Shown here: positions 4,864 through 62,870 of the stretch, in pieces | Numbering within the stretch: the stretch's first letter is position 1 | How the letters are laid out: each line of letters begins with the position of its first letter | NCBI GenBank assembly: GCA_002633005.1 | Contig: NMRA01000328.1 | Location: 190,674 to 254,673 of the forward strand | DNA from: Phoronis australis | Taxonomy: Eukaryota; Animalia; Phoronida | Length of the DNA: 64,000 nt | Direction: 5' to 3' | The notes under the pieces: generated by a model | The model's database searches: none | Told to the model about the DNA's origin: nothing | The model's input: only the letters and a program-made list of their open reading frames with translations | Made by a program: the position numbers and the translations under genes

Positions 4864-7064
4864 CAACTTTGCAAATTGGACTTGGCATAAAACATATTTA
4901 AAAGCAATGTAATTAGATGTCCATATCAGCGCCATACCAAAAATAAATGGTGCCTTAGTAAAACATTTTATTTCTTCAAAAAGATTCAACGGATGATGAA
5001 GCTGTTACTCTGATACCTGTGGTGGATTTTGTGTTTTATGTGTCTACCTGGAATACTTGAGTCAAAAACATTCAAAAGCATTCACAAACAATGCCAAATA
5101 ACTAAAGAAGGAAACACTATTCAGAGGCAAAAACTAGAAGTATGTTTTAAAGTTAATTTACAGGTCCATTTAACATGTTAGTTTAAAATATGAATTTCAT
5201 CAATTTCTATTTTTTTTGTAATTTTTATTAAACTCAAACATCTCAAAATATGTAAATATGTCTCTGTTCATTTAGCAGATTTTTCAGAAAGCTTTATTAA
5301 ACAAATTTTGTAGTGTTTGGTAGATTTGTTAAGAATTTGCCCTCCCAGATCAATTCAAAACAACACAATGGCATCTAGAATGTTAATTTCATGTAAAACA
5401 CAACAGATATGCGTAAATAAAATACACTAAAACCAGATGTTATTACTTGCAAATTGCAATCTTTGTTGAAGAAAATTGGCAGCATAAGGAAAAATGGGGG
5501 ATATAGAAGCATTCAAGTGGAATTATGAAAATAAAATGGCCGCTATGCTTCTGCCATCAATGATTGGACCGCGATGAAACACAAAAAGGCATTAAAGATT
5601 CAGATGTTGCGTAAACCTCATGCCTGAATTAGACGAGAAATGCGACCTGTTGTGTGCGAAACACACAAAATTATTCACAAATGAGATGGACAGAGTGGCA
5701 TACTTGATGCAATTTATTGCCCCAACTTATAAGAGTCCTGAGCAGGCTGCCTGGAACCATAAGTTTGTCATTTTGAACTTGGAAGGGGTAACTACTCTGC
5801 ATAGTGGCTAAGAATTTTGCAAACATTTATAAATCATGGGTGTTCTTCACACACGATGGGCCTTTTGAAATTGATACACCATAAATGTCTCAGCAGACCT
5901 GTATGAGTAAACACAGCTTAACAAAGGGTTTATGGTCCAGGCTAAGGTGATAATTGTTTTATTACCTCCTATGGGTTTTGAAAAGCCAAGCCCAGACCAT
6001 CCTAAATGGCCAGCACACTTACTTGGGATGGTCGAAATTCTTGAGCAAACAGCAAGCCTTTCTTCAGTGAATGACAAGCGATTTCACGCCCCTACACTTT
6101 TAAAGCTGATAGTGTCAAAACGACAAGAGTTACCAAATGAATTAAGACATTTGTTATCAGTTTTTGACTATGTTGCTAGAGTCCAATCAAATATTAGTGC
6201 AACCAGTTTTATTTCTCTCAGATTGCAGTCACAGCCATTTTGCTGACTCAGCCAAGGCGTAGAATGAACACACGTATCCACGTACACACAATGAAGACCA
6301 AGCACTTTGATTACCAGGGAACAAGTGGGTGTTTAAGATAAAATTGGGCAAGTGTTTGTGTGGTCAAAGAAGGCCATAGCTCATGCATAATCCATGATAG
6401 ATTGTTGATGACAGCCACAAGAACATGGCCAATTTTAGGTTGTTGTGTTTAGGCAGACTGAATTTGGCAACATACAGTAATGCAACAGAAAAACGACTTT
6501 AGCAATTAAAGCTACAAATTTTCTTGCATAAACCTGACCTTTTAACATGCTGTATGAAAAATTGTTTAAAGCTGCACATCACCCTGTTTAGGTGGCTAAA
6601 AAGTAAATTAGTAAATTTTTCAGTTACACCTTTTGTACACACTTCTATATGAATCTGTGAATTTTTACCCCAGAGCCTCTAAAAAGTATCAAGTCACATT
6701 CAAATCCTTATAGACTCCAATCCCTCACATGTCCAAGGCTGATCTATGGTTAGTGTGGCAAGTCTTGATGATGTGCAGTCTTATCTGGTCATAAACTGTG
6801 TTTTACAACTCAGGCCTCATTTACAAAAGCTAAAATTCATAATGTCTTCCAGCAAGAAACATGACATGGGAATAGCGTTTACAGACTGCTAAACCAAGAC
6901 TAGGCTAGGAGAGGTGCTTTGCCCTACACGGTGTCACATGACATCAAAGCATTGTTCTGGTAACAGCACGGTACACCCCAGCCAAGCAGGAAGTTAAACC
7001 TTTTTATAAAGAAATGCTCCATTTACACCGTAACTGAGCTTGTAAATTTCAACTGCCCCTTAAC

Positions 7065-7515
7065 CAAGGTACCTAAACTACATGGTTAACGGACTAATAA
7101 ACACGGCCCACAGACGCATGAACACGACTCACGGACCTGCAAACACTGTCCACTGACTCACAAACGTGGGAACGGACTTACAAAACATGATCCACGCACC
7201 CAAATACATGGGACACGGACTCATAATCCCAAGGAAACACGGTTAACAGACCGCCAAACACAGTTTACGGACAAAATGGAGATGTCAGCTGACCCAGGAA
7301 GCCGATGAGTCCGTGATCTGTGTTTGGCGGTCCGTTAACCGTGTTTCCTCGTGAATATGAGTCCGTGTCCCGTGTATTTGGGTGCATGGACCGTGTTTTG
7401 TGAGTCCGTTCCCATGTTTGTGAGTCAGTGGACGGTGTTTGCAGGTCCGTGAGTCGTCTTCATGCGTCCGTGCCCGTGTTTATGAGTCCGTTGACCGTGT
7501 AGTTTAGGTACCTTG
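7065..7515. mobile_element. Foldback-type MITE with ~208-bp inverted arms
   Basis: CAAGGTACCTAAACTAC...GTAGTTTAGGTACCTTG. Arms ~7065-7272 and ~7309-7515 are built of cacggac/aaacacgg subrepeats. TTAA at 7060-7063 and 7516-7519. Confidence 0.85.
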
Positions 7516-9495
7516 TTAAAGGTTAGAAAATAGTGGGCCAGTACATATTTCTACCAGATTAGCGTTATTTGTTTGGAAACACAAAGGGTTGGGTCATGGG
7601 CTATCTGCAGATGATCAGGGTGAGTGGGGTGATGGTGTAATTTGTAAACACAAGTTTTAAGTCATGAAATTAACACATCAATTGGATCTTTGATTTTTTT
7701 AAAATTGGTGAACTATTCAGACTCAATTCGTAATAATTTTAAATGGCATTGGAAAGACCTCAACTTGCCTACTGCTGATTATCATGTTTCCATTTCATTA
7801 GTTTTGGGGTCTCCACATACAGGTTCAATAGGCGGTGCAAACCTCTCAGGATTTTCAGAAGGCTTTGTAACTGTAGAAAATGTTGCCATGAGGCCTTATA
7901 CTCTCATAAAATTGGTCTCATACAGGCCTTATCACAACAATATTCTATTTCTGTCACCAACAAGAACATAGAAACCATCAGTGACACAAGCGCTTCAGAG
8001 GTTATTGGGGGCTAAGCAACTCTAAAATTGCACACATTACCTTTGACTTCATTACCTGTGACTTCATTACCTGTGACTTGAGTTGGTAAGGGAAATGGAA
8101 TCTTATCACGGTAAGACATATTATGATTTTATGAGAGTAAAATACACAATTCAATTTTCATTTATAGCTACCTAAACAGGGCCAAAGGCAGTTTTAATTA
8201 TTTTCATTTTCTTAATCTAAGATAAACGCTCCTCTATCCTCCCCTGTCCCCTTCCTTGTCGCAACTAGTTCCAATTTAGAGAACTGAAAGAATACTTTCT
8301 TTCAAACCTATTTATGAATTCCATTTTATATTCTCATTTCAACAACAAAACATTCAAGGAATATTTGCAGGACTACTGTTAAAGCACCCTTGTAGGGGAA
8401 ACTCATAAATAAATGACCCCCTGTGTAGTTAATATACCAGCAAATAATAATCAAGGAATGTAAGACTAAATAGTTTTATTTAAGAATTATCCCAAGCTGT
8501 TACAACTAATCAGGAATAAATTACTTGTTGCAATTGTATGTGTACCATTTTATAAATAAATGATTGCCAGAGACTTGTTAGTTGGGTCACACTTTCCAAA
8601 CATAGTACATGAGAAAACCAAATTATCTCCCTTGCTCAGAATCCTCATCATATTTCTCAATGGAAAAACATCATCACAAAACAGAAGAACTGAAATGCAA
8701 ACGAAACAATCCCAAATGTAAACAGGTTACTGCACAAAAGCTAAATATCTACGATATGCCAGGGTGCTAGCGAAAATGCTAGCTTTTTGTGAATGTGGCA
8801 TGAATCCAATTTTAGAATGAAAGGTTTCATTTGCTTTAACTTCATGTGTCATACACTTGAAAAAATGTTGTGCTACTCAGGGAGCATGTAAAAAGTACCA
8901 AGCTGACACATTGCATCCATCAATGCATAGTTGCCAATACTTTCTAAAAGGAAAAAACAGGACACATGACTCAACAATGACCACCATGATGAAAATGTAA
9001 GAATTCTCCATGTAACTCTCAGAAATGGAATGCTGACAGCCTTTTTCCCACTTTTTGGTTGGGGATCTGGGAAATGGGGGAAACATGCAGCACAACAATG
9101 TATGTAAATACAGACGCTTGTGTCAAAAACTGGGACAATTGGTTGTTGTTGTAGGATGTGGGACGAAGTTCAAAAAGCAGAAACGTTGGAAAGGATTCTT
9201 CGAATTTAAGAAACAACGCACATTATCTGACTGAAAGGTTTATCAGTGTTGCATGCGTCGCCACCTTTTGGTGATCAGATGAACTATCATAGCTTTAAGT
9301 GATTTATGGACATTCAGTCTTGATGGTCCAAGTGCAACTTTCGGAGGTCGCCTTGCTAGAATTACCATCTAAGGTAGTCCTGGCTCAGGTTCTGAGAATC
9401 TGAAGATCTTGTCAGCTAATGTCCATGTGAACCAGTGGCTATAAAAGATCCAGCATCATGTTTGAGAGAGGCCGCCCAGAGTCTGCATTAGACTA

Positions 9496-10521
9496 GCGTA
9501 TTCGTTCTAGAATGTGCTCATGCCCCAATAAGCGCCCCCCACGAGTTTCCACACTTCGCTGAAACAAGCACCCAGTCCATGAAAGTGTGCCTGCAAAAAA
9601 TGTCTTACCTACAGTAGCGTCTTCAATTTATCAACAAGATCGGCAGTCGTGAAAAAAATCATTGTGCATGGAATTTCTAGACCACCAGCCTTGCTGCTAT
9701 GTCGGTATTTAGCCATGACTATACACTTCAAATTTCCGCCGTGCTTCAAAAACAACCTAACAGTTTTGTTGATCTTGCGAGGAACTTGTCCCACTGTGGT
9801 GTGGCTTTTCAGAACAGACACAGGGATTGAATCTTTCACGTAGTTTCCAATTCTCCCTGAACAGGATTCCAAATTTCTTTGTACATGTGAAAACCGTGAA
9901 TTGAACTGGTACACATTCAGCTGACGGCTGTCTCACGACTAAAAAACTTTTGTGTTAAAAGCACATGGCCAGGAAGCACGCGCTGCATATACATTCCAGT
10001 CAAAACAAACTTCACATGACAACACGATTGTGTTTTCCGAGGGGTCTGTCCAGAGATTTTTCTCATATTGTGGGGTACAATCTTGCCCAAAATTCGGATC
10101 TAACCTGCTCTTAATCCGGACTCCACAGGAGCTTAAAAATCTTAGAGGCGCTATTGAAAAACTTAAGTGAGGACTTAAGGTTATTTGTTGAGTCGAAATT
10201 GTATTTTCATTCAAGTTGTCATATCGATAATTGCAATGCATTGACATATCAGCGAGTTCTCACCCTGGGATTTCAGCACAATTTTTGGTAAAATGATAGC
10301 AATTTAACAATGAAGTTTGATAGCAATGCACCACAGTTTTGTAGAAAGTCTGTCATAGGTTAGAGATAAACCACAGAATGTAAATTTGATGAATCCCAGC
10401 TTACGATCTCACCCCTTTCGGAGATTGGATTTCAACCGTCGTAGGTTATAATAACCACCCCCAGCCCTGAAAAGAATTTTTCTAAGCGCTGATTTCTAGG
10501 TGCTGATTAGGCCAAACACGG
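9496..10521 (-). mobile_element. Second, diverged and shorter copy of the HIRAN-carrying TIR element, opposite orientation
   Basis: Shares blocks with 38733-40264 (aataagcgccc, TCCAGAGATTTTTCTC, LKTLL terminus). ORF 9609-9914 contains VGQVPRKI...FLKHGGNLKC...GGLEIPC. Confidence 0.72.
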
Positions 10522-13347: not shown

Positions 13348-15771
13348 AGATGATCATCATTTTAGACATTCCCACTTAATGGAGCAATGTTACTTTACTT
13401 AATAATAATAGTAAATTAGTAGTTCTTTAGACGTTACAAAACAAATAAACAACATCGCCAGTCATTTTTAAAGGATTACTTCGCTGCAAATAATCAAAAC
13501 TTAACCAAGAGTAGTTTTATGACATCTATGAAAAACAATTGCGGCTATATACTAAAATTTTTGTACTTGTCATCTTTATGAGAATTATTCGAATGTCCCA
13601 CCAGATCCTATTCATAACATAGAGCAAGAGTCCTGAAAAGATTACAAACTTAATTTTATGTTATATGACATAACAGGATGGATCTTTCTGTGTAAACACT
13701 ATTATGAGATGTGAGTTCTAAAACCAACAAATGGAGCTTGTACAGTCTGGCTTTTGAGTCACCCGTGGGATCTGTTTTCATTTGGGCGACTTCTAGGGAA
13801 AGGCAAAAGGACCTGTTTAGCTCTATGTTTTTGGACCAACAAACTTCTATGCAATATCTGGTGGTGAGCTGTAATTTTTGATTATATCAAAGCATTCAGG
13901 CACTCAAGGGATTACATAAAATTTACTCATGAACTTTTCATCACTTCCACTCCAAGGAATGTTCACCCAATCTGCTCATAGTAGAAATGAATTTGAGCAT
14001 CAACATAGTTACACAACATCCAAATACTCCTGATGCAAGAAGCAGGGGTACATTTCTTTGTTACTGGATGTTGTACTTTAGTGACAAATTTTACAGCCAC
14101 TTGCACTCTAGTCATGAGGACAGCTTTCCAGTATCAACCAACCACCCCAAATCAAAATTTGATACCTCAAATATAAAGTGCCACACAGATTTCAAATGCA
14201 ATACGTGTGAGGTTCAACTTGACAAGTTTGGCACATTTACTAGGAATATGACCAAAGAACATGTTACTAGACATTCTTTACTTCTTTCATTGCAAGATAC
14301 ACAAACAAACAGTGCGTTTCTGAAATCCACTGGGTTTGTCTCAGTACACTCAACACACAGTATGCAATACTTTTGTTAGGTTGAAGTATCTGTGACAAAG
14401 ACATAGCTACAATTCCAACTGAGCCTAAAACAACCGTAACTGGAAGGTGATGGCACTCAACTTCCATATTCAAGTCTGTAAATTTCCAAAACAGGTCTTA
14501 CCAGGTATATTCCCATGAAAGCCCAGTTGGATTAACATACTTGAAACCCATTTAGGATTTGCTTCATGTATTTCAAGGATTAACAATTTATTCTAAACCT
14601 TTCAACCTTAAATTGGTCACTTGATATCTGAGGGGTCACCACAGACAAACTCTTTTATTTCTGACAATGCTTAAACACCACAGCTTTATATAACACAATT
14701 CAAAGGAACATTGCATACTAATGGCAAGTGACTTAAAATATATTATCTAATAGACATTTCATTTTCTTAAAAGAAATCTTAAAAGGGGTTTAAATCTGCA
14801 AGAATCTAGCAAGCAAGCCTACGATGATACCATCAGCTAGAACTACAAAAAGGTGCGGTGTAGGAAATGATAAAAGGAAAATATAAATTGCAACCAAAAA
14901 ACCGATTCTGAAGATATGCTCTAAGAGGCAAGAACTCAAATGAACACAAAGCATAAAAGAAAATTCCAAGGGCTCTGAATAAAATTTATACCAGTAGAAA
15001 ATTGTAAAAAAGAATGTACCTCAAAATTCAATCTAAATTTTGAAAATATCTGAAGATCATCAAATGACATTTATAACTTTATGATATTTCAAATTAAAAA
15101 AGTAAGGAGCCCTTCAACTCCCCTGTTCAAAACCCAGTGGGTTCTTAAATAGAGTTATACCAAGTGTGGTTTAGGTGATGAGACTGCTTTCTCGGGACAT
15201 TCCAATTTCATACAATAACGAGGGTCGAATGTTTTGATTTAATGTCGCGATGGTCACAAAATACCAAGTTGAGAAATAAGGCAAGTTAACACATCTTGTT
15301 TTCTATGCGGGTTAAAAAATTCCAGTAGGAAAAGAACTCATCTTGGTTATTTTTGTCTTCATAATTGCCTTTTGAAAATTTCAAGTTAACAGTAACAAGA
15401 AAAAGTGATCAAATGAGCAATATCATTCTAAATACAGTACGAGCCAATCAGATAAAATACAGTTTTCCGTTATGACAGCTAGTCTGTTAATGCCAACAAT
15501 CGATGACTGGTAACAACTACTGTGGTGGCAAAATTCTAATTACAGAATGACCAAGCCACCTTACTGACTTTTCTGTTAATTTCCCTTCGTTCTTAGTCAT
15601 CAGGGGAGACTACTCTGATGAAGCATTCGGCTTCCACCCAGGTGTTATGACAGGGCATTCAGGTCATTTTGTCTAAAAACCCTTGGCTGTGCTATAACTA
15701 CCATACTCAGTGCAAGTGCTTCTGATCAAAGCACTGGCTTCTGCCAATATACACAAATACCCAGTAGTTAA

Positions 15772-18345
15772 AGGAGAATGCCACCCAAAAAACAACCTGT
15801 TTTGTATCAATTTAGATCGAGTAGTTCCACTCGATAACACCAAGCTCAGTTGTTTTACCCGACACCTAACGGCAGACAGAGGTGTTGAAATTAACCAATG
15901 ACGTAATCGGTTCGAACGCAGTCTGTTCAGCCGTTCCCAACACGCTTACTGGTGTCAACTTATCGCTTGAATTCATCGTTTTACACCAATAAATCATCAA
16001 AATTCGATGTAAACCCCTTACAAATACACAGTTCTTGAACAAACGTGTTGTTTTATTTCACTGTAAAAGGTATTTGAACGTACCGTAGTCTACAGAGTTC
16101 GGTAGGACAATTTACCATGGTCGGTCGCGGGAGTTTGGGTCTGTTAGGTGATAAATTCGAATCATTCTTCAGTGAAATATAGACGGGGGCACATAGCTAT
16201 GTGCTGTACTTTTCGACTTCCGATTTTTCAGTTCTAAACACACAAAGCGCTTGATACTCCTCGCCAGTGGCTTGGAACCCAAACATAAACCAGCTTAAGT
16301 TGGAAACTAAACCTCCAGTCACGAAAAGACTATAATAGTGAGCCAAAGAAATAAAATGCACGTAATTATTTAGGTGAATTAGCCACGAAACTGAAAATCT
16401 ACTTACTTGTCGGCTGGCAACATCAAGTTTTCCTTCCACACAACTGTCAGTGCAAAGGTTGTACAGTAACAATGATTTGAATAACGTATTTATTTTGTAT
16501 ATCTAAATAAAGATTCCCCTAACCTGTGACAATAGCATATAAGATTGAGTTATTGTTTCACAACAGCTTTCCGTCAGCAAACACAAAATTAGCATGCGCT
16601 CACACGGTCTCAGTGCCTAGTCGATTACCTTTCACCCATCTAAAGCCGGTACGCAATGGATTATTCATTGCTGCAGTGGCGGATCTAGGATATCACAAGG
16701 GGGGGCCCAACATTTTGTCCGGCTGTAAGCATTTGCGCACACTGACCCACGATTGTAGATGCGCATAGCACCGAATGGGGGGAGGTCGCCCAGGAAATTT
16801 TTCTGTTTTTNNNNNNNNNNNNNNNNNNNNNNNNNNNNNNNNNNNNNNNNNNNNNNNNNNNNNNNNNNNNNNNNNNNNNNNNNNNNNNNNNNNNNNNNNN
16901 NNNNNNNNNNNNNNNNNNNNNNNNNNNNNNNNNNNNNNNNNNNNNNNNNNNNNNNNNNNNNNNNNNNNNNNNNNNNNNNNNNNNNNNNNNNNNNNNNNNN
17001 NNNNNNNNNNNNNNNNNNNNNNNNNNNNNNNNNNNNNNNNNNNNNNNNNNNNNNNNNNNNNNNNNNNNNNNNNNNNNNNNNNNNNNNNNNNNNNNNNNNN
17101 NNNNNNNNNNNNNNNNNNNNNNNNNNNNNNNNNNNNNNNNNNNNNNNNNNNNNNNNNNNNNNNNNNNNNNNNNNNNNNNNNNNNNNNNNNNNNNNNNNNN
17201 NNNNNNNNNNNNNNNNNNNNNNNNNNNNNNNNNNNNNNNNNNNNNNNNNNNNNNNNNNNNNNNNNNNNNNNNNNNNNNNNNNNNNNNNNNNNNNNTGCCA
17301 CACAGATTTCAAATGCAATACGTGTGAGGTTCAACTTGACAAGTTTGGCACATTTACTAGGAATATGACCAAAGAACATGTTACTAGACATTCTTTACTT
17401 CTTTCATTGCAAGATACACAAACAAACAGTGCGTTTCTGAAATCCACTGGGTTTGTCTCAGTACACTCAACACACAGTATGCAATACTTTTGTTAGGTTG
17501 AAGTATCTGTGACAAAGACATAGCTACAATTCCAACTGAGCCTAAAACAACCGTAACTGGAAGGTGATGGCACTCAACTTCCATATTCAAGTCCCCCTGG
17601 GCCCCCCCTAAATCGGCCTATGTGCTGGCTTCTCAAAACATTTCTACTCACGAATACTCCAAAGGCATTACAAATTGAATCTAATGAGACAGACTTTGTT
17701 TCAGTTTTATAGCATTGGTTAGGGTGAAAATAATTCATTTTGAAACATAACGCAGAATAATAAACGTCTACGTGGCAACTCGCCCGGTGCCAATCCCGAC
17801 TTAGTCGAGAGCTCATCCGACGAAGACTTAATTCACGGATCGGATCGTTAGGTTTCACAGGCTATCAGTTCGAACCAGAATACACTGGTCAAGAAATACT
17901 AGAGAGGCGCGGTGAACATGCACAGGCAACGGAACGTATGGATAGTTCTTTGGTAAGTTGGAATTCGTCAGAGAAATCATTGTGGACGAAATGCCGGCCA
18001 CAGACACGGAGATGTTTCACAGCCTCATACTTGCTATTAACAGCATACTTTTCATTCTTCACTACTGTGAGTCACTTCCTAAGCATTTCGGGCTCTCAAG
18101 GAAGTTGAAAAAACGATATACCCGTTTTCTTCGCAGCTTCATAGTTCGGACAAGTGGGAATGATGCACCGCAATATAGCACCATTCACTTTGCAGATGAA
18201 CCACTGACGTCGCTGCGTCGTTTCTTATCTTCCTCACAGGTTAACGTGACACCTCTCGGCAAGGTGAGGTCGACCGTATAAGAGGTGATGATATAGACCG
18301 ATTAAGACGGTAAAAAAGGCTAATTAAATTGTGTGGCATTCTCCT
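15772..18345. mobile_element. Kolobok-like DNA transposon (non-autonomous or decayed), spanning the assembly gap
   Basis: TTAA TSD at 15768-15771 and 18346-18349. Perfect 13-bp TIR AGGAGAATGCCAC/GTGGCATTCTCCT with AG termini. Internal ESSSDED...GYQFEPEY relic at ~17800-17950. Confidence 0.75.
16811..17295. other. Assembly gap (485 N)
   Basis: Run of N. ORFs spanning it are artefacts. Confidence 1.
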
Positions 18346-36574: not shown

Positions 36575-37700
36575 AAAAGTGACCACTAGATGGCATAAAA
36601 ACGTCGAATCCATCCAAAAACAGGGACATGCCATGGCTTCTATAATAGAAGGCTATTTACCAAATTTCATGAATATCTGTCAAGGAACTTCAGAGAAACA
36701 AAAGAAAACAGAAAAAATGAAATTGCCACTAGGGGGCACAACTTTCATTGGATTCGCCTGAAAGTCGTCGTAGTCTGTTGTTAGCTTGACATAAATACAC
36801 TTACTAAATTTAATAAAGATCCTGCAGTGGGTTTAGGGGTTTAGCAGATACAGCTATGGGCACAAAACAAAACAAAACAAAACTACCACTAAGAGCTGCC
36901 ACAGTAGTCGAAGTTGTCATCATCAATTGTGCTCTTCACACTGAGAACATACACTCAAATTTTCAAAATCAACCATAGACTGGTTTGGTTGATAGAGGGG
37001 TGGACGCCAAAAACCAGACTCAGAAACAGCAAAAATGGCCACTAAGTGGCAAAAAATATCTTGATTCTATCCAAAAACGGGAGGATAGCTTCATCTCATC
37101 AAAAGATGCTTATATTCCAAATTATATGAAAATCCGTTGCGGGCCTTTGAAGATATAGAGGTATAAAAAACTAAGGGGGCACACCGGTAGTCACATTCGT
37201 CCAAAAGTCGTCGCCGTCCGTTGCCAAAATCATACAACCATGGGCGCAAAAAAACGGCCACTAGGAGGCATCACAGCAGTCGAAGTCATCAGAAAATCGT
37301 TATCAGCCATCCTCTTCATAGTAAGAACATACATGCCAATTTTCACAATCATCCTTAGAGCGGTTTGGTTGATAGAGGGTGGACTCCAAAACAGTAAAAA
37401 TGGCCACTAAGATGCGCAAAATACGTTGAGTGATGCCTACGTGCCAAGTTTCAAGAAAATCAGTAGAGGACCTTTGAAGATAGAGCAGTAAACGTAAAAA
37501 AATAACATTGCCACTAGGGGGCATACCAGTCGTCCGGTCCATCCGAAATTCGTCGTCATCCGTCGTCAGTGTTATAGGAACACATCTGCCAAATCTCATC
37601 AAGATCTTGTGAGGGGTTTAGGAGATACAGCTGCGGACACCAGAAGCCCGGACAAACAGAGATGATGACAACATGCATCCACATATTTATATGTGCATAA
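36575..37700 (+). mobile_element. Helentron/HINE-like repeat (copy 2); boundaries approximate
   Basis: Same modules. Ends ggagatacagctgcggac...cggac...atgcatccacatatttatatgtgcata, a degenerate 3' palindrome. Confidence 0.6.
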
Positions 37701-38732: not shown

Positions 38733-40264
38733 CTGTTTTCGCCCTAATAAGCGCCCACGGTGCTTAGAAAAATTCACTTCAGGAAGGGGGCGCTTATTGT
38801 AGCCCAAAAGTGGTTGAAACCCGGTCTCCGAAACAGGTGAAATCGTAAGCTAGAATTCATCAAATTTACGCTCTGTGACAAATCTATAACCGATGACAGA
38901 GTTTCTACCGCTACAAAATTGCAGTGCATTGCTATCAAACTTTGTTGTTAAATTACGAGCATTTTTCAGAAAATCCCAGAGCAAAAACTCGCTGACTGAT
39001 GGGTTGCTGCCTCGCGATCGCTGGCTATAGCTCAACTTGAATTCTTGAATAAAAATATAGTTTCGACTCAACAAATTACCTGAAGTCCTCCTTAAGTTTT
39101 CAAAATAGCGTCCCAAAGATTTTTAAGTTCCTGTCTAGTCGGGATTAACTGCATATTAAGTCGGAATCTGTGCTAGATTGTACTCTGCAACACGAGAAAA
39201 ATCTCTGGACGAACGCGTATGTTGTTGTCACGTGATGTTTGTTTTGAAGTTCGTCTGCATATTGTTTGAGTGAGCGAGTGCGTGTCATCAGAGTTCACTT
39301 GCCAGAGTAAACGCGATGTAACGATCTAGGTGTGCATTGTAACTAAGGAAATTAACACAAGCAGTAAAGCAGTAAAGCAGAACATGTTTTATTTAGCACT
39401 TCTTGATCTCATCTGCTAAAAAAAAATTTCGAGAATTGTCTCTGTAAGGCCGATGTCATAGAGTCGCCTGGTGACTGGATGCGTGACTAGATGCGTGACT
39501 GTTTAAGAGTTATTTTTCGGGAGATTCGGGTGGTGTAAGGGTTTGGAAGTGTTCACTATCAGTGGGTCATTTTGACTTTAAAAGCACCAATTATGACTAA
39601 ATTAATAATCCCCCTTAAAAATAACGCAAACGTTTTTTACGATACTAGAAACTTTCACAAATAAGGGCCAGTATATATTTCTTGCCAACGCTATGATACC
39701 CGTTTCATGAATAGATAGTTCCCGAAGACTAATCTTCGATGACACGTACTTGACTGAATGTAGCGTGCGCTTCCTGGCCACGTGCTTTTAACTGAACAAA
39801 GGTCAAGTTTTTATTAGTCTTTGAGACGAGGTTTTCACCTGTAGAAAGAAATTTGGATTCCTGTTGAGGGAGAAGATCTGTATGGGAAAGATACAATGCA
39901 ATGCCTTTGACAAGTACGCCGGGTCTGTTCTGGAAGGTCAGACCATAATAGGACACGACCCTCGCAAGATCAGCACAACTTGCATTCTTTTTGAAGCACG
40001 ACGGAAGTTTGAAGTGTACAGTCACGGCTAAATACCGATGTAGCGACGAGGCTCGTGGTCTACACATTCCGCGCACAATGATTGTTTCACGACTGTCAGA
40101 TCTTATAGATAAATTGAAGACGTTACTGTGGAATTTTGGAACTGTAGGTAAGGCATTTTTTGCATGTATACTGCGTTCAAGGACTGGGCGCTTATTTTAG
40201 CAAAGTCTGAAATCAAGTGGAGGGGCGCTTATAGGGGCAGGGGCGCTTATCAGAGCGAATGCGG
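38733..40264 (+). mobile_element. TA-flanked TIR element (Tc1/mariner/pogo-type ends) with a decayed HIRAN-like domain
   Basis: TA|CTGTTTTCGCCCTAATAAGCGCCC ... GGGCGCTTATCAGAGCGAATGCGG|TA. Internal FFLKHDGSLKCTVTAKYR..RGLHIP at ~39985-40130. Confidence 0.75.
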
Positions 40265-40721
40265 TATTGTATATATCTGACTTAATGCACATCCTTGCTT
40301 ATAAGGGAACTATTTATTATAAATTCAACAATAGATAAAATTGCATTTCATACAACATAGTACCTTTACAACACTTGACAGCAAATCAAAGCCAAATAGA
40401 TTGGTGCAGAGCTAGTCATTAAAGTTATGCATAAAGACTTACCTTGCCATTTGCAACTTAGACCTCAACAAACACATAAAACTTCTGTCTTCTCAATCAC
40501 AGCCTCTGACAAAACTTAACCAAGCGTAAAAAATGAAAGTACTCAGGACGGGAGTTTTGATCTCAACGCTGATTCATTCAATTACGAGTTGATCTAATGA
40601 AGGCTAAAACGGAATTTTAACTAAAAGATCCACACAGACAAACATGTGTGTGGTTTAACTCAGTGTTCATAAATTCATTATGCACTGAAAACATTAGAAG
40701 GAATGAAAGAATGGACCCTAC

Positions 40722-42743: not shown

Positions 42744-42864
42744 GTCGGTCATTGTTCTACCTCGGTTGTGATAAGTTCGGTCGTTGTTTGCTTTTGCTTA
42801 CGAGTCAGTCAACATGCCACACTGTTGCTGCGTTCTGGGGTGTACTCATTATCGTCTCACGCAC
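42744..42864 (+). repeat. Diverged inverted copy of the THAP start region (48183-48303)
   Basis: About 120 bp aligns by eye with the reverse complement of 48183-48303. ATG at 42814 encodes MPHCCCVLGCTHY versus MPPCCCVPGCTHY. Confidence 0.85.
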
Positions 42865-43117
42865 AGAGGAAAAACTGTCCCACTTGCCCGAGTGTCCCAC
42901 GACACACTCCCACAAGAGGGTGATCTGAGCACCCAAACTGCTTACATCCTGCCGTATGACTCCCTCGCCACACACCTGGCACCTTCCAAATAGCTCCAAT
43001 ACAAGTCCACAATAAACTTATCACACTTAGGCTCACCGATCTGTTCATTGGATGACGAACTGTCCTCCTCACTGGGTGTCGAACCTGTAATACCTGTAAT
43101 ACCTGTCACGGACAGGA

Positions 43118-46100
43118 TCATTGGGGATATGCTGATGCACTATTCCCCTCCCCAGACCATCCCCGTGACAGCAGAAGGCGCAGAACTCCAGGGCTGACGT
43201 TGCCTGTAAGCATTTGATTTGACAACACTCGGGCACGGCTCTTCTTGTGACTCTTCGCAGCATGGCCATAAATGATACCGGCTTCGAGCAGTCGGCTGCC
43301 ATCATTGAACTCCGCCAGTTGGGATGCAGTCTGCTCGAGGTTGTGTTTGCGGGCCAGCAGCTTAACGTCAGCCGAATATAAGTAGAGGGGTTGGTTGGTG
43401 GTGCATGAGCCAGCGAGGTAATCTGCACGCTCATTAATCAGGACACCGGCGTGGCCAGGTACGAAAGACCAGATCACCACATGATGAGGGTGGCGTGATC
43501 GGAAGACACCCCAGTTGGCTGGGAGGTTTCCAGATTGAACTTTCATCAACACTGCCATGGAATCGGTGGCAAAGATAATGGTGTGATTCTCCAGGTCTAA
43601 GAGTGACAGCTTGATTAGGGCACGTTGTATAGCCTCAAACTCCATCCGCGTACTGCTTGTGTATACCTGGTGGCAGCCACTACCTTCCGCAATGACGTTG
43701 TTAGCACAGCGTATTTGATAACCCCATCCCGCACGATTAGTTTCACCATCGAAGGATCCATCAGTTGCTACAATGATGGCATTAATACCGCCAAGATCAC
43801 GCCATTGCTGACGGCACAATGCTTGGGCTACTCCTGGAGGCCATTCCCGAGCTTCCCTGTTGAACGCAATAATGACATTCGGTTCCTCACCAAGTTCTTG
43901 TACTGGCAGCCAAGCAGCATCTTGCGCGATCATGTGTTCGCCGATGAGACCCATGGTTGCGTTAACAGCAGCGACAGTCCACGAGCACCTGCTAAGTCTT
44001 TGGTAGGAGGCATTGCGAAAAGGTCTAGGACGAAGTCCATAAGTTACTGTTGCAGGGACGGGGTTCACGCACCTGTCAAGTGCAGTCTTCACTTGACTGT
44101 GTAAAGGATGGAAGGGGCTTTGAACAGCCTTGGCTAAAGTAATACCTTGTAGAAGAGATTGTCTGTCTGCAATGCTGGGAACACCGACAAGGTAACGTAA
44201 TGCTGCGACTGACGTAGATCTCGTACATCCAGTGATGACGCGAAGACCAATGTTTTGGAGCCTCTCAAGTCTGTTGATTTGATTTTTACTGATGTTGATC
44301 ATGGGGAGAGCGTAGTCGAAGACCGAAGTGACCAGGGCTTTATAAAGCATGACGAGGTGCCTTTCCTCCGCCTTCCGACCAGCCGCAGCCCTAAGGGCAT
44401 TGATTCCTCTGTTAGCACGGCTGATCATACTGTTAACTTGAGTTGAGAAGTTGAGCCTGCGGTCGAGTTCTACACCCAAGTGACGCATGTGGTCGGATGT
44501 TGCGATCAACTTCCCATCGTAGGTAGGGCAAGGGAAATCATCAACACTGAGGCGATTGTCCAGAGTACAAAAGAGAGCTTCACATTTGTCTCCATTGCAG
44601 CTCATTCCGCTGGTAGCACAAAACTCGCAGATTTCCATCAATGTAGACTGTGCTTTGTGTAGAATCTCATGATGTGTTTGTCCTTGAGATGACAGCAGCA
44701 TGTCGTCTGCAAAGGTGCGAAGTCGGCAGTCAGCGCGGTTCAGTCTGGCGAGTGGGAGGGTGTAGATATTGAACAGCACTGGGGACAGAGGTGAACCTTG
44801 GGGTAAGCCTGTGTTGACAGATACCCATTCTGAACGCCATGTGCGATGTTTTAGCATGCATCGCCGGCTGTTGAGGGCACTCATCACCCATCTAACGCAT
44901 CGTACTGGAATACCAAGATGAAGCATGCCATCCGCAAGTTTTGGAAGTTGAACAGAATTGTACGCATCTTCCAGATCAAGGCCAACGAGGAGAGTGTTTT
45001 CTTTGTTTTCAAAACCTTGCCATATCTCATCTGCAACAGAAGCTGCATTGGCCCATGAATCTCTACCAGGTCGATAAGCACCCATTCCTGGGAGGAGCCA
45101 GGGTTCAATTAACCTGGTGATTCTTTGTGCCATGATCCTTTCAGGGATCTTTCCAATGACGTTCTGCATCACTATGATGCGATATCCCTTGAGTGCACGA
45201 TGGTCTTTTCCAGGTTTTGGTACAGGAATTAAGAAGGCATCTGTCCAGATGTGAGGGATGATACCAGTGGCCAGACTGACGTTGTAGGACTTCACAAGCT
45301 TGGCCAGCAGAGAGTCAGGCAAAGACTTGAGTGTCAGGACTCTCACGCCATCGGGGCCAGGGGCACCCTCTTTGCAAGTTTTGATAGCATCCGCAACCTG
45401 TGCTGTAGAGAATTGACTGTCCTGTTCAGCTGTGTTGCAAAGTCCATCTAGTTGTTGGATGAGGAGGTTTTTTTCAGATTCATCACTGTGGTCACTTTGC
45501 TGGATGAAACGCAGTAGAAAAGCCTCACCCTGTTCCCTGTCACTTCTGAGAATGGTGTTGCTTGCATTCAGTAGGATGGATCTGGGAGGAGCGCGTCTTT
45601 TGTCCATGTTACGATGGAAGTGCCAGAAATCTGTAGCTGTCAAGTTGGATCGGCTGCAAAGCTCATCCCATCGACGATTGGCAGCCTCGGATGCTGAGCG
45701 TTTGAACAGGGCAGTGGCCCTGTTTCTGGCTGTTCTGACGACCGTGAACTCTTCCGGTGTGCAGTTTTGGCGTGCACGATCAAAATCCCGCTCTTTGGAG
45801 CGCTTGTTGGCCCAGGCAGTGTCAACATCTTTATTCCACCAAGTAGGGGGGTTCTGCCTCCTGTAGTGGCATACGTGCTTATGTAAGCTTTTTGCGTGTC
45901 TGCACACTGATTTCCAGATTTCATCCCCTTCAGTATTATTGTAAGGCCGTTTATAAGTTGTTACAGGAGCCTTTAATTGGTGGTGTAGTTGAACTTCACA
46001 CAAGTAGTGATCGCTACCAGCTTGACAACTCCTACGCCACTCAGCACGGTCGCGAAGACTGTCGCTGCTCAGAGCAAGGTCAATGCACGAGTCCTTGTCA

Positions 46101-46912
46101 CCCGGTCTCTCAGCCATCCTTGTGGGTTCACCAGAGTTGAGAATATATAAATCTAGTTCTGGAAGGCATTCGGCGAGACCTTTACCATTTGGGTTCACAC
46201 CGTAGACATCCCAGTTGGGATGACGAGCATTAAAGTCACCAACAATGAGAATGTCGGGATAGATGTGAAGAAGATTGTGAAGAAAATTCCAATGGTCGCA
46301 GCTAGGGGAGGAGTTTCCCCGTATATACAGATTGACTAGTGTGAATGGGTCGTGGAAACCAGGATCAGTGACACTTATAATCTGTAGTTGCCTGTCAGTG
46401 GTAGTGAAACTGTGAGTATCCACAAGCTCTACCATGGTGTGGCTGTCTTTGTTGATTGCGTACGCCAGGCCATTGGTGATGCCCTCTTTAGGAAAAAAGA
46501 AGCCTTCGAGTTCAAAGTCTGTTAGGTCCTTGAGTTTGGTTTCTTGGAACAGGAGAATGTCGTAGCCCGCACAGATTTTATCCAGTATATGTTTGCTGCC
46601 ACGTATGCCACGTATATTACAGTAACCAATCCTGAGACGGTTGAGTTGAAGTCTTTCGTACTTGAGTTGTCGGGCACGTTTGCCAGCTCTTTTACCTCTG
46701 CGTTTCTTTCTAGGTCCGCGCTTTCTGGCGCCACGGCGGATGTTCTGTCCGGCTGCACTTTCCCAGTCGCGCCGTCCAGCATCCGTATGGACGTTTACTT
46801 CTGTAATAAATCTTGAAGCAGGCGATGGAGTAACGATAAGCCTGTCGAGGTTGTAACAACCTCTAAGCCCCCTACGCCCAAAGGGGCAGGCTAACCGCGG
46901 CGGGACAGTTCC
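43118..46912 (-). CDS. Retrotransposon pol-like frame: Arg/Lys-rich N-terminus, APE endonuclease, reverse transcriptase, RNase H (1264 codons stop to stop; first ATG at 46435)
   Basis: APE motifs: RIGYCNIRG, DILLFQET, NLY, VGDFNARH, IDL, GSDH. RT motifs: LDLEDAYNSV, GLPQGSPLSP, FADD, LGVELD. RNase H motifs: ATDGS, RMEFEAI, ATDS, VPGHAG, NERADYLA. The frame upstream of 46435 was translated manually. Confidence 0.93.
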   Translation of the reverse strand, partial: GTVPPRLACPFGRRGLRGCYNLDRLIVTPSPASRFITEVNVHTDAGRRDWESAAGQNIRRGARKRGPRKKRRGKRAGKRARQLKYERLQLNRLRIGYCNIRGIRGSKHILDKICAGYDILLFQETKLKDLTDFELEGFFFPKEGITNGLAYAINKDSHTMVELVDTHSFTTTDRQLQIISVTDPGFHDPFTLVNLYIRGNSSPSCDHWNFLHNLLHIYPDILIVGDFNARHPNWDVYGVNPNGKGLAECLPELDLYILNSGEPTRMAERPGDKDSCIDLALSSDSLRDRAEWRRSCQAGSDHYLCEVQLHHQLKAPVTTYKRPYNNTEGDEIWKSVCRHAKSLHKHVCHYRRQNPPTWWNKDVDTAWANKRSKERDFDRARQNCTPEEFTVVRTARNRATALFKRSASEAANRRWDELCSRSNLTATDFWHFHRNMDKRRAPPRSILLNASNTILRSDREQGEAFLLRFIQQSDHSDESEKNLLIQQLDGLCNTAEQDSQFSTAQVADAIKTCKEGAPGPDGVRVLTLKSLPDSLLAKLVKSYNVSLATGIIPHIWTDAFLIPVPKPGKDHRALKGYRIIVMQNVIGKIPERIMAQRITRLIEPWLLPGMGAYRPGRDSWANAASVADEIWQGFENKENTLLVGLDLEDAYNSVQLPKLADGMLHLGIPVRCVRWVMSALNSRRCMLKHRTWRSEWVSVNTGLPQGSPLSPVLFNIYTLPLARLNRADCRLRTFADDMLLSSQGQTHHEILHKAQSTLMEICEFCATSGMSCNGDKCEALFCTLDNRLSVDDFPCPTYDGKLIATSDHMRHLGVELDRRLNFSTQVNSMISRANRGINALRAAAGRKAEERHLVMLYKALVTSVFDYALPMINISKNQINRLERLQNIGLRVITGCTRSTSVAALRYLVGVPSIADRQSLLQGITLAKAVQSPFHPLHSQVKTALDRCVNPVPATVTYGLRPRPFRNASYQRLSRCSWTVAAVNATMGLIGEHMIAQDAAWLPVQELGEEPNVIIAFNREAREWPPGVAQALCRQQWRDLGGINAIIVATDGSFDGETNRAGWGYQIRCANNVIAEGSGCHQVYTSSTRMEFEAIQRALIKLSLLDLENHTIIFATDSMAVLMKVQSGNLPANWGVFRSRHPHHVVIWSFVPGHAGVLINERADYLAGSCTTNQPLYLYSADVKLLARKHNLEQTASQLAEFNDGSRLLEAGIIYGHAAKSHKKSRARVLSNQMLTGNVSPGVLRLLLSRGWSGEGNSASAYPQ

Positions 46913-47462
46913 CTACTGGCCTGGGGCTGCCAGGCTTAAGGCGGGCGGCAACTGACCAATGAGGGTTAAAGAACCCCTCCCACCGTCATGCGTGGCCCCT
47001 GACGCCCACCCGACGCCGATGAGGTGAAGGCTTAGAATCGGTAAACTGCCACGCACCGGTATGTTCACTGACACAATGTGGCAGCCGGGAGTGACCTCTC
47101 CCGGACCCCTGACCAAGAAGACAATCCGTCGTCTCCTGCCCTTCTGAACGTTGAGTGCGTAGGACAAGTAAGGTATCCAACAGACACTTCGTCCACTCTG
47201 ATGGGGGGGTCAGCTCCACCTGCAGCTCTTTGCAGTTCTTCTGACCGTGAGTGCCAGAGATGTGGAGAGCATCTGAAAGGCACCAAGTCTGCTCAGCCAC
47301 AAAAAATAGTATTTTACAAGACAAGGTAGTAAGTCTTGAGCCCAACCAATGAAGGGTGCTATTTGCCCATAGCTGGGAGTTAGGTTGGTGAACGCCAGAG
47401 CATATCCATACACCGATGGGTCATGCACGTTGCACCTTTAAGAGCCTAACCTCTTCCGAGAT

Positions 47463-47700
47463 CCCTTGCAAAATTTAGCCTGGGGCCGCAGGGTGCCCAG
47501 TTACCATGGTGTACCACGAGGAGGTACTGCAAGAGTCTTGATTAGAGGTAGTTAAAGGCCACCAAGGCGGGTCTTACACATGCCTTCCTAATTCGTCTCA
47601 GAGGACTAGGTGGTCGTAGAAGCTGAAAGCTAGAAAGTGCAAGCACTAACTATACTAAGCTACACTAACTACACATCTAACCCTGTGTCGAAGACACCAC
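47463..47700 (-). ncRNA. HDV-like self-cleaving ribozyme at the element 5' end
   Basis: Minus-strand pairings: P1 GTGGTGT (47700-47694) with ACACCAT (47512-47506); P2 CTCTTGCAG (47535-47527) with TTGCAAGGG (47471-47463); P3 ACC/GGT around L3 TCCTCGT; P1.1 GG (47505-47504); P4 CTGGG/CCCAG; J4/2 GCTAAA with the catalytic-C position at 47478. J1/2 insertion of ~158 nt. Confidence 0.85.
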
Positions 47701-49985
47701 ACCACTGGGTGTCGAACTGGGACTGTATTCACTACCACTACTCAACATCGCTGCCGGGCTGCTTACAGGCTCTGGGCTAGAGACAACAGCACAGGGCGAA
47801 TCACTGCTAGTTCATGGAATTGCACGCAATGGGGTACGTTCGGAGGCACGGATGACAGTAGATGCAGTGCCTCCAGTCACTGTATATAGTGGCCACAGCT
47901 CGCGAGGCTTCTCGCTTCAAAAACGCACTTCTAGGGGTTGGCGACGGGGCACTGCTGGGAATCAACATTGGCGGTATGGTACTCTTCTTCAGGCGTTGTT
48001 TCGCAGGGACCTTCATCAATTCAGCGCAATCTGACGGCAGAAAATGTTTGCCACACACTTGGTAACCCTCCACTGCTTTGTACGTTGCGTGGACGGGTAG
48101 CGCTGCGTTCTTCCCATGAACGAGCTAGCCAAGTACGGCGAAGTGTGTCATCCTTCGAAAAGCGACGCAAGGTACCCAAAGCGTGTGTGAGAGGATAATG
48201 AGTACATCCCGGCACGCAGCAACAGGGTGGCATGTTAACTGACTTGTAAACAAAAGCAAACGACGACCGAACTTATCACAAACGAGGTAGAACAATGACT
48301 GACCGGCAGTAATCGTACTGTAATGTCGGCAGCTTCGCGGCTAAGTCTACAGCTAACTCCTGTTGAAATTCTCCATACTTCAAAATTCCTGTTTGCAAGT
48401 GCTTGGAATTGCCATTCAATGGTTTTCATAATAAGAGACTAGAAATCCGAGTTGTCACACACGCCCACTGGCCTGGTGCTGCCTTACATTTTCACTGGCC
48501 ACCTTGCTACAGTCGACTTGCGCAATAGACGAATTAGTGTCCACATTTGTGGTCACGTGCCGGGCTCAGACCCATGAGACAAGTTGCAGCAACAAATTCA
48601 GTGCGAATCCATAAACCCTTTTACACACACAATTAAATGCGCAAAAATGCTCCTGAATATCTTAAACCTTTAATTTAATGCTCAAGCTATACAACGAGTG
48701 CGTGTTGAAACACAACATTGACCTTGGACCAAAGATGGACTCCTTGCATCAGACCTTAGTAAGCCGGGGGAAGGCGAGTGCCACCCCCAAGAAATGCATG
48801 CCTCAGGTTCAAACCATGGCAACCGACAAAGGTGTGGGGCTGGGGAAAGACAAAAAAGAAAGTCTTCGAATACTGATCAGAAAGAAAATTCAAGAGAACA
48901 TTGACAACTCGGTATCAGTGTATGGTTTACCATTTGAGGGCCCTCTCCAGTACAATTGTTGTTAGGGTCTCCGTTTTTGCAGCTTAGGTCGTCTAAGCGC
49001 CCTTGAAAATGTGCACTTAATCATTCATACATGTATTTCGAAAATTCGAGAAAAGTTTTGCGAAGCGTATTAATTCAGTCCAAGTTTTTCAGTGGTCCAT
49101 AGGCGGTGCACTACGGGGGGCTGAGAGGGCTTTAGCTCCCACTTTTTTCAGTACTGCGCCCTTTATACACCTCCGGCATGACACTGCCAATACACTCACG
49201 AGGGAAAGTTGAGATTCCAATTTCATCAAAAACACAAAACATTCGTGCACAGCACAGAAGCTGTCTTGTAAGAAATGGCGATGCATCACTGAACTTAGTT
49301 GAAGCCTGAAGGCTGACTTGCAAAAATTCGATCTATCATCAGACCACCATATCGCAAAGAAGGAAACTAAACGATAACAGTGATATTCATGAATGTCGGG
49401 CAGCTCTAAATGCTTTATTGAATTGAAAACTAGACTTATGAAATTCAAAAATTTACAAACCGTAGACCGAAAAAGAAGTTCAAGCCATTGCCCATAAATT
49501 TGGAAAGATTGTCTTTGCACTTCCTTGATGCTTGTAGTTCCCAGTAGTACTGTGCAGTGAATTTAGGTTCTTCTAAACCGAATCGTTTTATTGCCATCCC
49601 CGTGCATACTGCAAAGGCTGGACACGTCATGACTCAGTGACGCACCCACGTTAAAAATAAGGTGTAGTCATGCAGTAGGCTGCCCGCGTAGAATCCGCGC
49701 ACACTTGACGGGAAAAGAACTTGAACTGCACTGAGGGGTTGAAGTGTGTGCAGTTTCGGGACACGCGTTCATTTTCCCCGGCCGCCCGGCAGAAGCTGGA
49801 CCAGTGGCCATGTTTCAACAAGGAATTTTGATACAGCTCTATAGGCCAAGGATTTCGGGATCATATCTTTCAAAAAAATCTTCAGGAAATGGCCGTATTA
49901 AAATGAACTTTTCCCGAAACTGGGTAAAAAAACGACCTTAGAGCCAAAACACGGGTATAGGTTCGAGTTAAGCCATACGTCTCAA

Positions 49986-62169: not shown

Positions 62170-62870
62170 TAGTGCCAGACACTAGGTGGCGCAGAATACG
62201 TCAAATTCATGCCAAAATGGATAGATGCTATCACCATCACAACAGAAACTGGTTTACCACATTTCAATAAAAATTGTCAAAGAACTCTGAAGATAAAGAT
62301 GCTAATATAAAAACTAAAATTGCCACTAGGGGATACACCTTTAGTCAGAACCATCCAAAATTCTTAGGTAGCTGTAGTCACATTTATAATACAAACCTAA
62401 TTCTTGCAAAATTTCACCTTTCAAAGGAGTAAGGAGTTACAGCTGAGGAGGCAAAAATGACAAAAATAGTCACCGGGAAGCGTCACAGTTGTCAAATCCA
62501 TCCACAAATCAACGTCTTCTTATCAGGAACAAAAAATGCACGCAAAAATAAAAATAGCCACTAGGTGATGCAAAAATACATCAAATCCATAAGAAAATGA
62601 ACGACTATCGTCATCTCCTTAATAGAAACCTATCTGCCAAGTTTCACGAAAATCCATCGACGAACTCCTAAAATATGAGGCAACCGTAAAAAAACTAAAA
62701 TTGCCACTAGGGGAACAGCGGAAGACGGATCGGTCTGAAAGTCGTAGTTGTCATCCTGCCAAATCTAATTACGATCCAGCAAGGGGTTTAGGAGATACAG
62801 CTGTGGACGCCAGACACCCAGACGGAGATGACAGTAATATGCACCCACATATTTGTATGTGGGTGCAAAA
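62170..62870 (+). mobile_element. Helentron/HINE-like repeat (copy 3) with intact 3' hairpin
   Basis: Same modules. Terminal 12-bp stem TGCACCCACATA-TTTG-TATGTGGGTGCA (62840-62867) followed by an A-run. Confidence 0.65.

Follow-up and report, generated by a model that had tools for sequence, protein, structure and literature searches.

A LINE leader that joins a predicted HDV-like ribozyme to a domain built like a dicistrovirus intergenic IRES

The window analyzed here, a stretch of 64,000 nt, carries on its minus strand a full-length LINE whose leader contains two structured RNA modules: an HDV-like fold at the first base of the element and, 400 nt downstream in the same leader, a triple-pseudoknot domain built like the type 6b intergenic internal ribosome entry site (IRES) of dicistroviruses. 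HDV-like ribozymes occur at the 5′ ends of the non-LTR retrotransposons L1Tc/ingi, R2, R4, R1, RTE, and LOA/Baggins. An earlier, sequence-only reading of this DNA had correctly named R2, RTE, and L1Tc/Ingi as known cases, and, because six LINE clades in all are known to have HDV-like ribozymes, the ribozyme part is ordinary and this family is one more entry on a known list. The interval of that reading leaves out the more unusual part of the leader, namely the IRES-like domain at 47056-46820. Self-cleaved LINE RNAs are capless and many of their ORFs have no AUG, which is why the pairing of the two modules matters. On our analysis, the leader probably works as a two-part mechanism, in which self-cleavage by the HDV-like fold would be combined with initiation at a non-AUG codon by the downstream dicistrovirus-type IRES. 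The features are collected in Table 1.

Table 1. Features of the LINE, its leader, and its insertion site, listed 5′ to 3′ along the minus strand
Feature	Coordinates	Strand	Basis or remark
Upstream host: multi-copy transcribed repeat with a decayed THAP-like frame	47718..48303	-	inverted arm pairs with 42744-42864
Target duplication, 5′ copy, 15 bp	47703..47717	-	empty-site joints
Full-length single-ORF LINE (APE endonuclease, RT, RNase H)	43085..47705	-	ends from empty-site reads and other copies
P1 5′ strand, preferred register	47699..47705	-	predicted cut directly ahead of G47705
Second, identical P1 5′ register	47694..47700	-	site of the sequence-only reading; overlaps the 47685..47697 hairpin
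5-bp hairpin at the start of J1/2	47685..47697	-	a similar hairpin with changed letters heads L002
J1/2, about 160 nt, UAG-rich, poorly conserved	47539..47698	-	
Ribozyme core	47459..47538	-	descriptor, Rfam alignment, pair-by-pair comparison
P2 5′ strand	47538-47526	-	ribozyme core
P3/L3	47525-47513	-	P3 47525-47523/47515-47513; L3 47522-47516
P1 3′ strand	47512-47506	-	
P1.1, two C-G pairs	47505-47504	-	
P4	47500-47480	-	47500-47496/47484-47480
Predicted catalytic C in J4/2	C47478	-	
P2 3′ strand	47474-47459	-	
Triple-pseudoknot domain, layout of a type 6b dicistrovirus intergenic IRES	46820..47056	-	
PKII-like pairing	46898..47018	-	47018-47014 with 46902-46898
PKIII-like pairing	46940..46984	-	46984-46979 with 46945-46940; encloses SLIV-like hairpin 46979-46961
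SLV-like hairpin, CAGCC loop	46920..46934	-	
Domain-3-like part	46820..46892	-	P3.1 46892-46887/46844-46839; SLIII-like hairpin 46863-46847
PKI-like pairing	part of 46820..46892	-	46879-46875 with 46824-46820; ends in in-frame CCU
ORF from predicted first codon GCU, 1233 aa	43118..46819	-	
LINE 3′ tail, about three 9-nt repeats	43085..43109	-	
Target duplication, 3′ copy, 15 bp	43070..43084	-	empty-site joints

Structure and conservation of the IRES-like domain

According to a recent preprint (10.1101/2024.04.17.590008), IRESs of types 6a and 6b share three pseudoknots, the SLIV hairpin, and an SLV hairpin with a CAGCC loop, and type 6b is defined by SLIII together with L1.1 motifs of its own; PMC4132737 places a CCU at the end of PKI. 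For each type 6b position a counterpart can be placed in the window, and the order agrees: PKII, PKIII, PKI, SLIV, SLV, and SLIII. The CAGCC loop of SLV is invariant in nine of nine aligned leaders, SLIII forms a hairpin of 5-7 bp in the aligned leaders, and SLIV is present with the loop CUUU in the window and an AUUU-like loop only in a family from a second host. The core of the L1.1a motif, UGGUUACC, is partly kept, and L1.1b, UAAGGCUU, is reduced to AGG.

Relatives match the leader region 47115-46866 at 70-82% identity. RNAalifold, applied to nine leaders of which six come from one family, gave a structure with 75 pairs, 37 of them doubly changed, a result reached by none of 500 shuffles; when this structure, derived from these same rows, was slid as a control, only 34-45% was paired. 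A three-knot structure of 49 pairs, set by hand, is paired in 92.7% of the cells of the nine leaders, compared with 33-47% when slid, and 12 of its 49 pairs are doubly changed. Among the knots, PKII has one doubly changed pair in the nine leaders, and PKI and PKIII have none, being invariant or broken in single copies. Taken as a single sequence, the IRES-like domain folds no better than its shuffles (z -0.89).

Two smaller features were seen in the same part of the relatives. A motif of 19-21 nt located between the ribozyme and the IRES-like domain (47377-47356 in the window) is kept in distant relatives (L001:456-474, L002:667-685, and L025:5470-5490). At L004:896-980 and L005:5576-5660, the beginning of the IRES-like domain is duplicated over a short length in inverted orientation.

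Comparison with viral type 6 IRESs

A set of 64 viral loci fetched by a pattern scan, all of which contain the L1.1a and SLV motifs by construction, was used for comparison. Versions 1 and 2 of a topology descriptor matched L001, L002, and 20 or 19 viral loci, which look 6b-like by their motifs, and missed the window because four consecutive Watson-Crick pairs were demanded in PKIII. Version 3, relaxed after these two had missed the window and always requiring the CCU, recovers the window together with 6 of 61 LINE loci and 19 of 64 viral loci; on shuffles that keep the SLV hairpin, it matched 39 of 34,452. A covariance model built from the LINE leaders alone has its best match among the 64 viral loci in L092, a weak match (218 nt, 12.9 bits, rough E 0.003) that is also the only one of nearly full length, and the other matches below E 0.3 cover the SLV hairpin alone. 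L092 is a member of Rfam IRES_Cripavirus (46.1 bits) and is located behind an RdRP_1 gene. The LINE leaders themselves have no match to IRES_Cripavirus (RF00458), and of 20 viral loci that were picked by the spacing of their motifs, and are mostly 6b-like, none reached the gathering level of this Rfam family. Because there is no RF00458 match and several loop motifs differ, the domain is called built like a type 6b IRES, not a member of that group.

The likeness to the type 6b intergenic IRESs of the Dicistroviridae (e.g., IAPV and Taura syndrome virus) comprises the order of the three pseudoknots, SLV with its CAGCC loop, SLIV, SLIII in domain 3, a partial L1.1a motif, and a CCU that closes PKI and is followed by a first codon of the GCU/GCA type. 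In contrast to the viral IRESs, the LINE domain is about 240 nt long, G+C-richer, and has a longer P2.2, 4-5 nt linkers around SLV, a variable SLIV loop, and a diverged L1.1b, and it is chromosomal and placed ahead of a reverse transcriptase. The RTE/Ceph domain of Kojima 2018 was considered as the identity of this domain and rejected, as three short motifs had no occurrence in the supplement file searched (PMC5786205). No report of a dicistrovirus-type IRES in a retrotransposon appeared among the matches listed for a literature without most subscription papers. In Luke et al. 2013 (PMC3894237), dicistrovirus-type IRESs in non-LTR elements are put forward as a hypothesis, under which ORF definitions would need revisiting. 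Our analysis indicates that the leader domain is likely to be a factorless (factor-independent) IRES.

The ORF and its non-AUG start

The open frame behind the leader spans 46912-43118 on the minus strand (1264 codons). Its first Met is residue 160 and its first endonuclease (catalytic) motif lies at residue 98, with no in-frame ATG ahead of that motif. The loop of a hairpin pairs with five almost invariant nucleotides that lie 55 nt further downstream and end in CCU. In 10 of 17 matches (the window, L001, L002, L019, L020, L025, L030, L031, L038, and L045) this CCU shares the reading frame of the endonuclease; in the other seven, the frame shifts further on. One base of the 5-nt stretch is altered in L030, L031, and L045. 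A stop is located seven codons ahead of the CCU in L001 and in the family of the second host, in whose unbroken copies the CCU is in frame.

Endonuclease, RVT_1, and RNase H domains were found on this single minus-strand ORF, and by this architecture only (one ORF with APE, RT, and RNase H) the element is Ingi-like. Vingi elements are without RNase H (PMC13708176), and a 2A-like peptide near the N-terminus is described as a feature of trypanosome Ingi/L1Tc and of Ingi-1_AC. The 2A motif is absent from all eight proteins scanned, most of which are without their N-terminus. A pattern search of the LINE protein gave no C-terminal Cys/His finger, and four RT motifs had no occurrence in two of the three supplementary files of PMC3708506. 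The matches to the RT included no named reference element.

An apparently exchangeable 5′ head

In the second host, eight loci (about five distinct copies) and one partial locus share the IRES-like domain and have a different conserved 5′ head. This other head was located on close relatives of the LINE at L004:590-800 and in L025, L026, L029, and L038. It has no match to the HDV descriptor or to Rfam, and little covariation (3 of 48 pairs); it may resemble the heads of RTE/BovB elements. A FastTree phylogeny of 58 RT fragments of unequal length, midpoint-rooted and without a topology test, groups the window with the family of the second host (support 0.93) and puts L002, the relative with the shared HDV head, on an earlier branch. 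Since the window groups with a family bearing another head and the HDV-headed L002 branches earlier, the sequences suggest that the IRES-like domain is old in this LINE clade and that the head was exchanged. We lean, if only slightly, towards the broader proposal that the clade uses a true dicistrovirus-type, factor-independent IRES behind an exchangeable head, which is here the HDV-like ribozyme. If true, two virus-like RNA modules would make up a cassette that is uncapped, AUG-less, and free of initiation factors, and transfer of type 6 IRESs between RNA viruses and retrotransposons would be implied.

The same domain could instead be a binding or packaging signal for the protein of the element, behind an active ribozyme, with a near-cognate start reached by scanning or with the aid of the ribozyme. 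PMC6765202, where HDV-like heads are themselves proposed as IRES-like elements, is in keeping with such a signal, as are the missing Rfam IRES match and the lack of covariation in PKI and PKIII. However, the order of the three knots, SLIV, SLV, SLIII, and the in-frame CCU is that of the viral intergenic IRESs, and the domain is retained in relatives with a different 5′ head, so that a signal other than an IRES appears unlikely to us.

Element ends and cut site

Reads of the empty site, joining 43069 to 47703 with 15 ambiguous letters, were found in three of three raw RNA runs (225, 210, and 204 reads), and their joint skips 4633 in each run. Because these reads show the 15-bp duplication in all three runs, the insertion is fixed independently, and the earlier appeal to a target site duplication as an independent definition of the element end is borne out. 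The letters 47705-47703 are both the last 3 nt of the 5′ target duplication and the first 3 nt of the family, a microhomology. Among the matches listed, the unrelated flanks of other copies start behind 47704 (one contig) and 47705 (two mutually different contigs), three further contigs diverge behind 47688, and two simply end at 47702 and 47706.

Three other copies thus begin at 47704/47705, and this puts the most likely cut ahead of G47705, the base with which the family begins. The sequence-only reading had a cleavage site at G47700 that coincided with the element end to within 2 nt; at G47705 the coincidence is closer than it claimed, and the 5′ ends of other copies back G47705 and not G47700. 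Both registers of the P1 5′ strand give an identical 7-bp P1, and constrained folding prefers the G47705 register by only about 1 kcal/mol. Eickbush et al. 2013 (PMC3774820) report duplicated P1 strands with two usable cut sites for R2, as well as R2 ribozymes that are functional with a J1/2 of 216-498 nt. The R2 precedent, the near-equal energies, and the copy that begins at 47704, and so is without G47705, would fit a cut at G47700, with the five upstream bases as a carried-along duplicated P1 and both sites maybe used. A cut at G47700, however, would strip 47705-47701 from every new copy, whereas three copies keep 47704/47705 onward, and the local hairpin 47697-47685 covers four of the seven bases of that register; hence G47700 is a rather improbable site. 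The R2 ribozymes resemble the present one in their long J1/2 and in two P1 strands offering two cut sites (PMC3774820). R2 differs in being site-specific with a restriction-like endonuclease, whereas the copies of this LINE have unrelated flanks.

J1/2 had been described as long and TAG-rich, and the count of UAG is indeed 10, compared with 2.8 expected. Its fold is no more stable than those of shuffles (z -0.46), and a long unstructured J1/2 slows HDV-like ribozymes according to PMC4908430. In the nascent RNA of this copy, bases of the P1 strand have unpaired probabilities between 0.06 and 0.99. The target duplication and the head of the LINE share an exact 8-nt match (47716-47709 and 47692-47685), equaled by 96 of 40,000 random 15-mers; this match makes base pairing between flank and P1 strand possible in the present copy. 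With its P1 5′ strand open to pairing by the upstream target duplication, this copy may be cleaved more slowly than other copies; effects of flanking sequence on the ribozyme are known for L1Tc (PMC3185411). Target specificity of the insertion was also considered for the 8-nt match and rejected, since the flanks of other copies are unrelated. No pile of read starts was seen at 47700 or 47705 in the three raw RNA runs, whose depth of 0-4.6 per direction is too few reads to judge cleavage.

Fold and statistics of the HDV-like ribozyme

The five pairings P1, P1.1, P2, P3, and P4 can all be drawn in nested double-pseudoknot order on the sense (minus) strand of the LINE, as had been claimed from the sequence, with P1 opening on a G-U pair and P3, L3, P1.1, and P4 at the places then given. 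The presence of P2 likewise stands, but its drawing as a 9-bp helix does not: a better drawing has up to 13 bp and a 2-nt bulge and places the helix immediately on top of P3. The J4/2 sequence GGCUAA is taken by us, as in the earlier reading, to resemble that of antigenomic HDV. In the free minimum-energy fold, P2, P3, and a shifted P4 are formed and P1 is not.

An HDV descriptor, composed after the sequence had been seen, has one match in both strands of the 64-kb window, two in 348 shuffled windows, and none when the 951-nt leader was shuffled 16,337 times. When the 121-nt core was queried, the Rfam family drz-agam-1 (RF01787) aligned over 47463-47547; the 13 nt of the P3-L3-P3′ core are identical, and the GG of P1.1 and the CUAA of J4/2 are in register. 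The alignment scores 12.4 bits (E 3.3), compared with a gathering score of 37 bits, and the model differs in its short J1/2. A search of Rfam over 2 kb gave no ribozyme. The whole window contains no gathering-level Rfam match, and therefore standard annotation would miss the ribozyme, as the sequence-only reading expected.

With the ribozymes of L1Tc/ingi, R2, R4, R1, RTE, and LOA/Baggins, the present one shares the nested double pseudoknot, the G-U first pair, the C in J4/2, and a predicted cut at the first base of the element; with L1Tc it also shares the single ORF with APE, RT, and RNase H. The whole ribozyme of L1Tc is 77 nt, whereas here J1/2 alone is about 160 nt. The tandem P1 5′ strand, the absence of a 2A motif and, by pattern, of a C-terminal Cys/His finger, and the separate IRES-like domain downstream further set this element apart from the known ribozyme-bearing ones. 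The HDV-like fold is almost certainly real, and the ribozyme of the family is predicted, with high confidence, to be active.

Conservation of the ribozyme

The ribozyme core was found by blastn in L002, a 5′-truncated relative with 48% protein identity and the one sequenced relative that bears this ribozyme. Across the 23 pairs of P3, P1.1, P4, and P2, with a 2-nt gap in the alignment placed by hand, 15 are unchanged in L002, two have one-sided and four two-sided changes, and two are broken; 21 of 23 pairs are thus kept, and when the 13 changes were placed at random 200,000 times, 21 or more pairs survived in 36 cases. The compensatory changes fall in P2 and P3, C47478 is retained, and two changes in the P1 3′ strand of L002 remain compatible with the P1 5′ strand of the window. 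The P1 5′ strand itself is without covariation support because L002 is 5′-truncated. The strict HDV descriptor has no match in 61 related loci; two antisense matches of a relaxed version among them were rejected, as they lie inside ORFs. No gathering-level match was obtained by Rfam on 12 related loci.

A contig of depth 70.8 under the same species label has no difference over 47429-47576, and another copy has 10 differences, of which the nine among those listed are all outside the ribozyme core. A diverged copy is without the 2-nt P2 bulge, has one P3 pair changed to U-G, and has three changes in the P1 3′ strand, among the 7 of its 12 differences that are listed. A sister subfamily (47455-47556 and 47664-47688) has at least three changes in the P1 3′ strand, with 7 of 12 differences listed; past 47688 it no longer follows the window, and it may now be cut about 20 nt further in. 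Viral contigs contain no ribozyme-core pattern and no protein relative of the LINE, and two pattern matches in bacterial genomes, in G+C-rich coding DNA, were read as chance.

The fold could also be a relic, or switched off, in an element transcribed from an internal promoter. A J1/2 that is long and without significant structure, of the kind that slows ribozymes (PMC4908430), is compatible with this, and so are the pairing of this copy's flank with the P1 strand and the L1Tc head, which holds both promoter and ribozyme. Against a relic, the core is unchanged in the majority contig of the family while J1/2 varies, it covaries in L002 at 48% protein identity, and R2 ribozymes work with a J1/2 of 216-498 nt (PMC3774820), which leaves a relic very improbable. 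That the pairings arose by chance, as an Rfam score below threshold and a descriptor made after seeing the sequence might allow, is contradicted by the compensatory changes in L002 and by the shuffle counts and core conservation in other copies, and can practically be dismissed.

Proposed mechanism

The LINE would be transcribed by read-through from its host, and the HDV-like fold at its first base is predicted to cut it out of the read-through host transcripts. By analogy with HDV chemistry, cleavage would depend on Mg2+, proceed via C47478, and take place most likely just before G47705, and it would leave an uncapped LINE RNA with a 5′-OH. The triple pseudoknot would then likely translate this uncapped RNA as a dicistrovirus-type IRES. 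Judging from the likeness to type 6b, binding of the 40S subunit would fall to the SLIV and SLV hairpins, and the last pseudoknot would imitate a tRNA that is base-paired to CCU 46822-46820. Translation would then begin at GCU 46819, independently of initiation factors, and give a product of 1233 aa. Target-primed reverse transcription would reset the 5′ end of the family at the cut. The leader makes cap-free, AUG-free translation testable with a 240-nt RNA, and, as a compact cap-free, AUG-free expression cassette, it would be of interest for all-RNA retrotransposon tools.

Host repeat and other repeats in the window

The THAP match in the host repeat scores 17.7 bits, under the Pfam cut-off of 23.9, and the inverted arms of the repeat (within 42744-42864 and 47718-48303) are 121 nt long. 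Relatives of the host repeat are read both ways at a depth of 100-335 in three RNA runs.

Elsewhere in the window, 14179-14476 and 17296-17593 are an identical 298-nt duplicate, the second copy of which adjoins an N run, and this is probably an assembly artefact. A long inverted repeat at 7058-7522, with 164-nt arms that are 91% alike, is typical of a miniature transposon. One repeat is present twice, at 9489-10487 and 38762-40271, in diverged copies that are 74-92% alike and face opposite ways. A repeat family that is dispersed and has internal sub-repeats occupies 600-1870, 36580-37630, and 62170-62720, and four places match one 12-mer, which is presumably CTCF-like.
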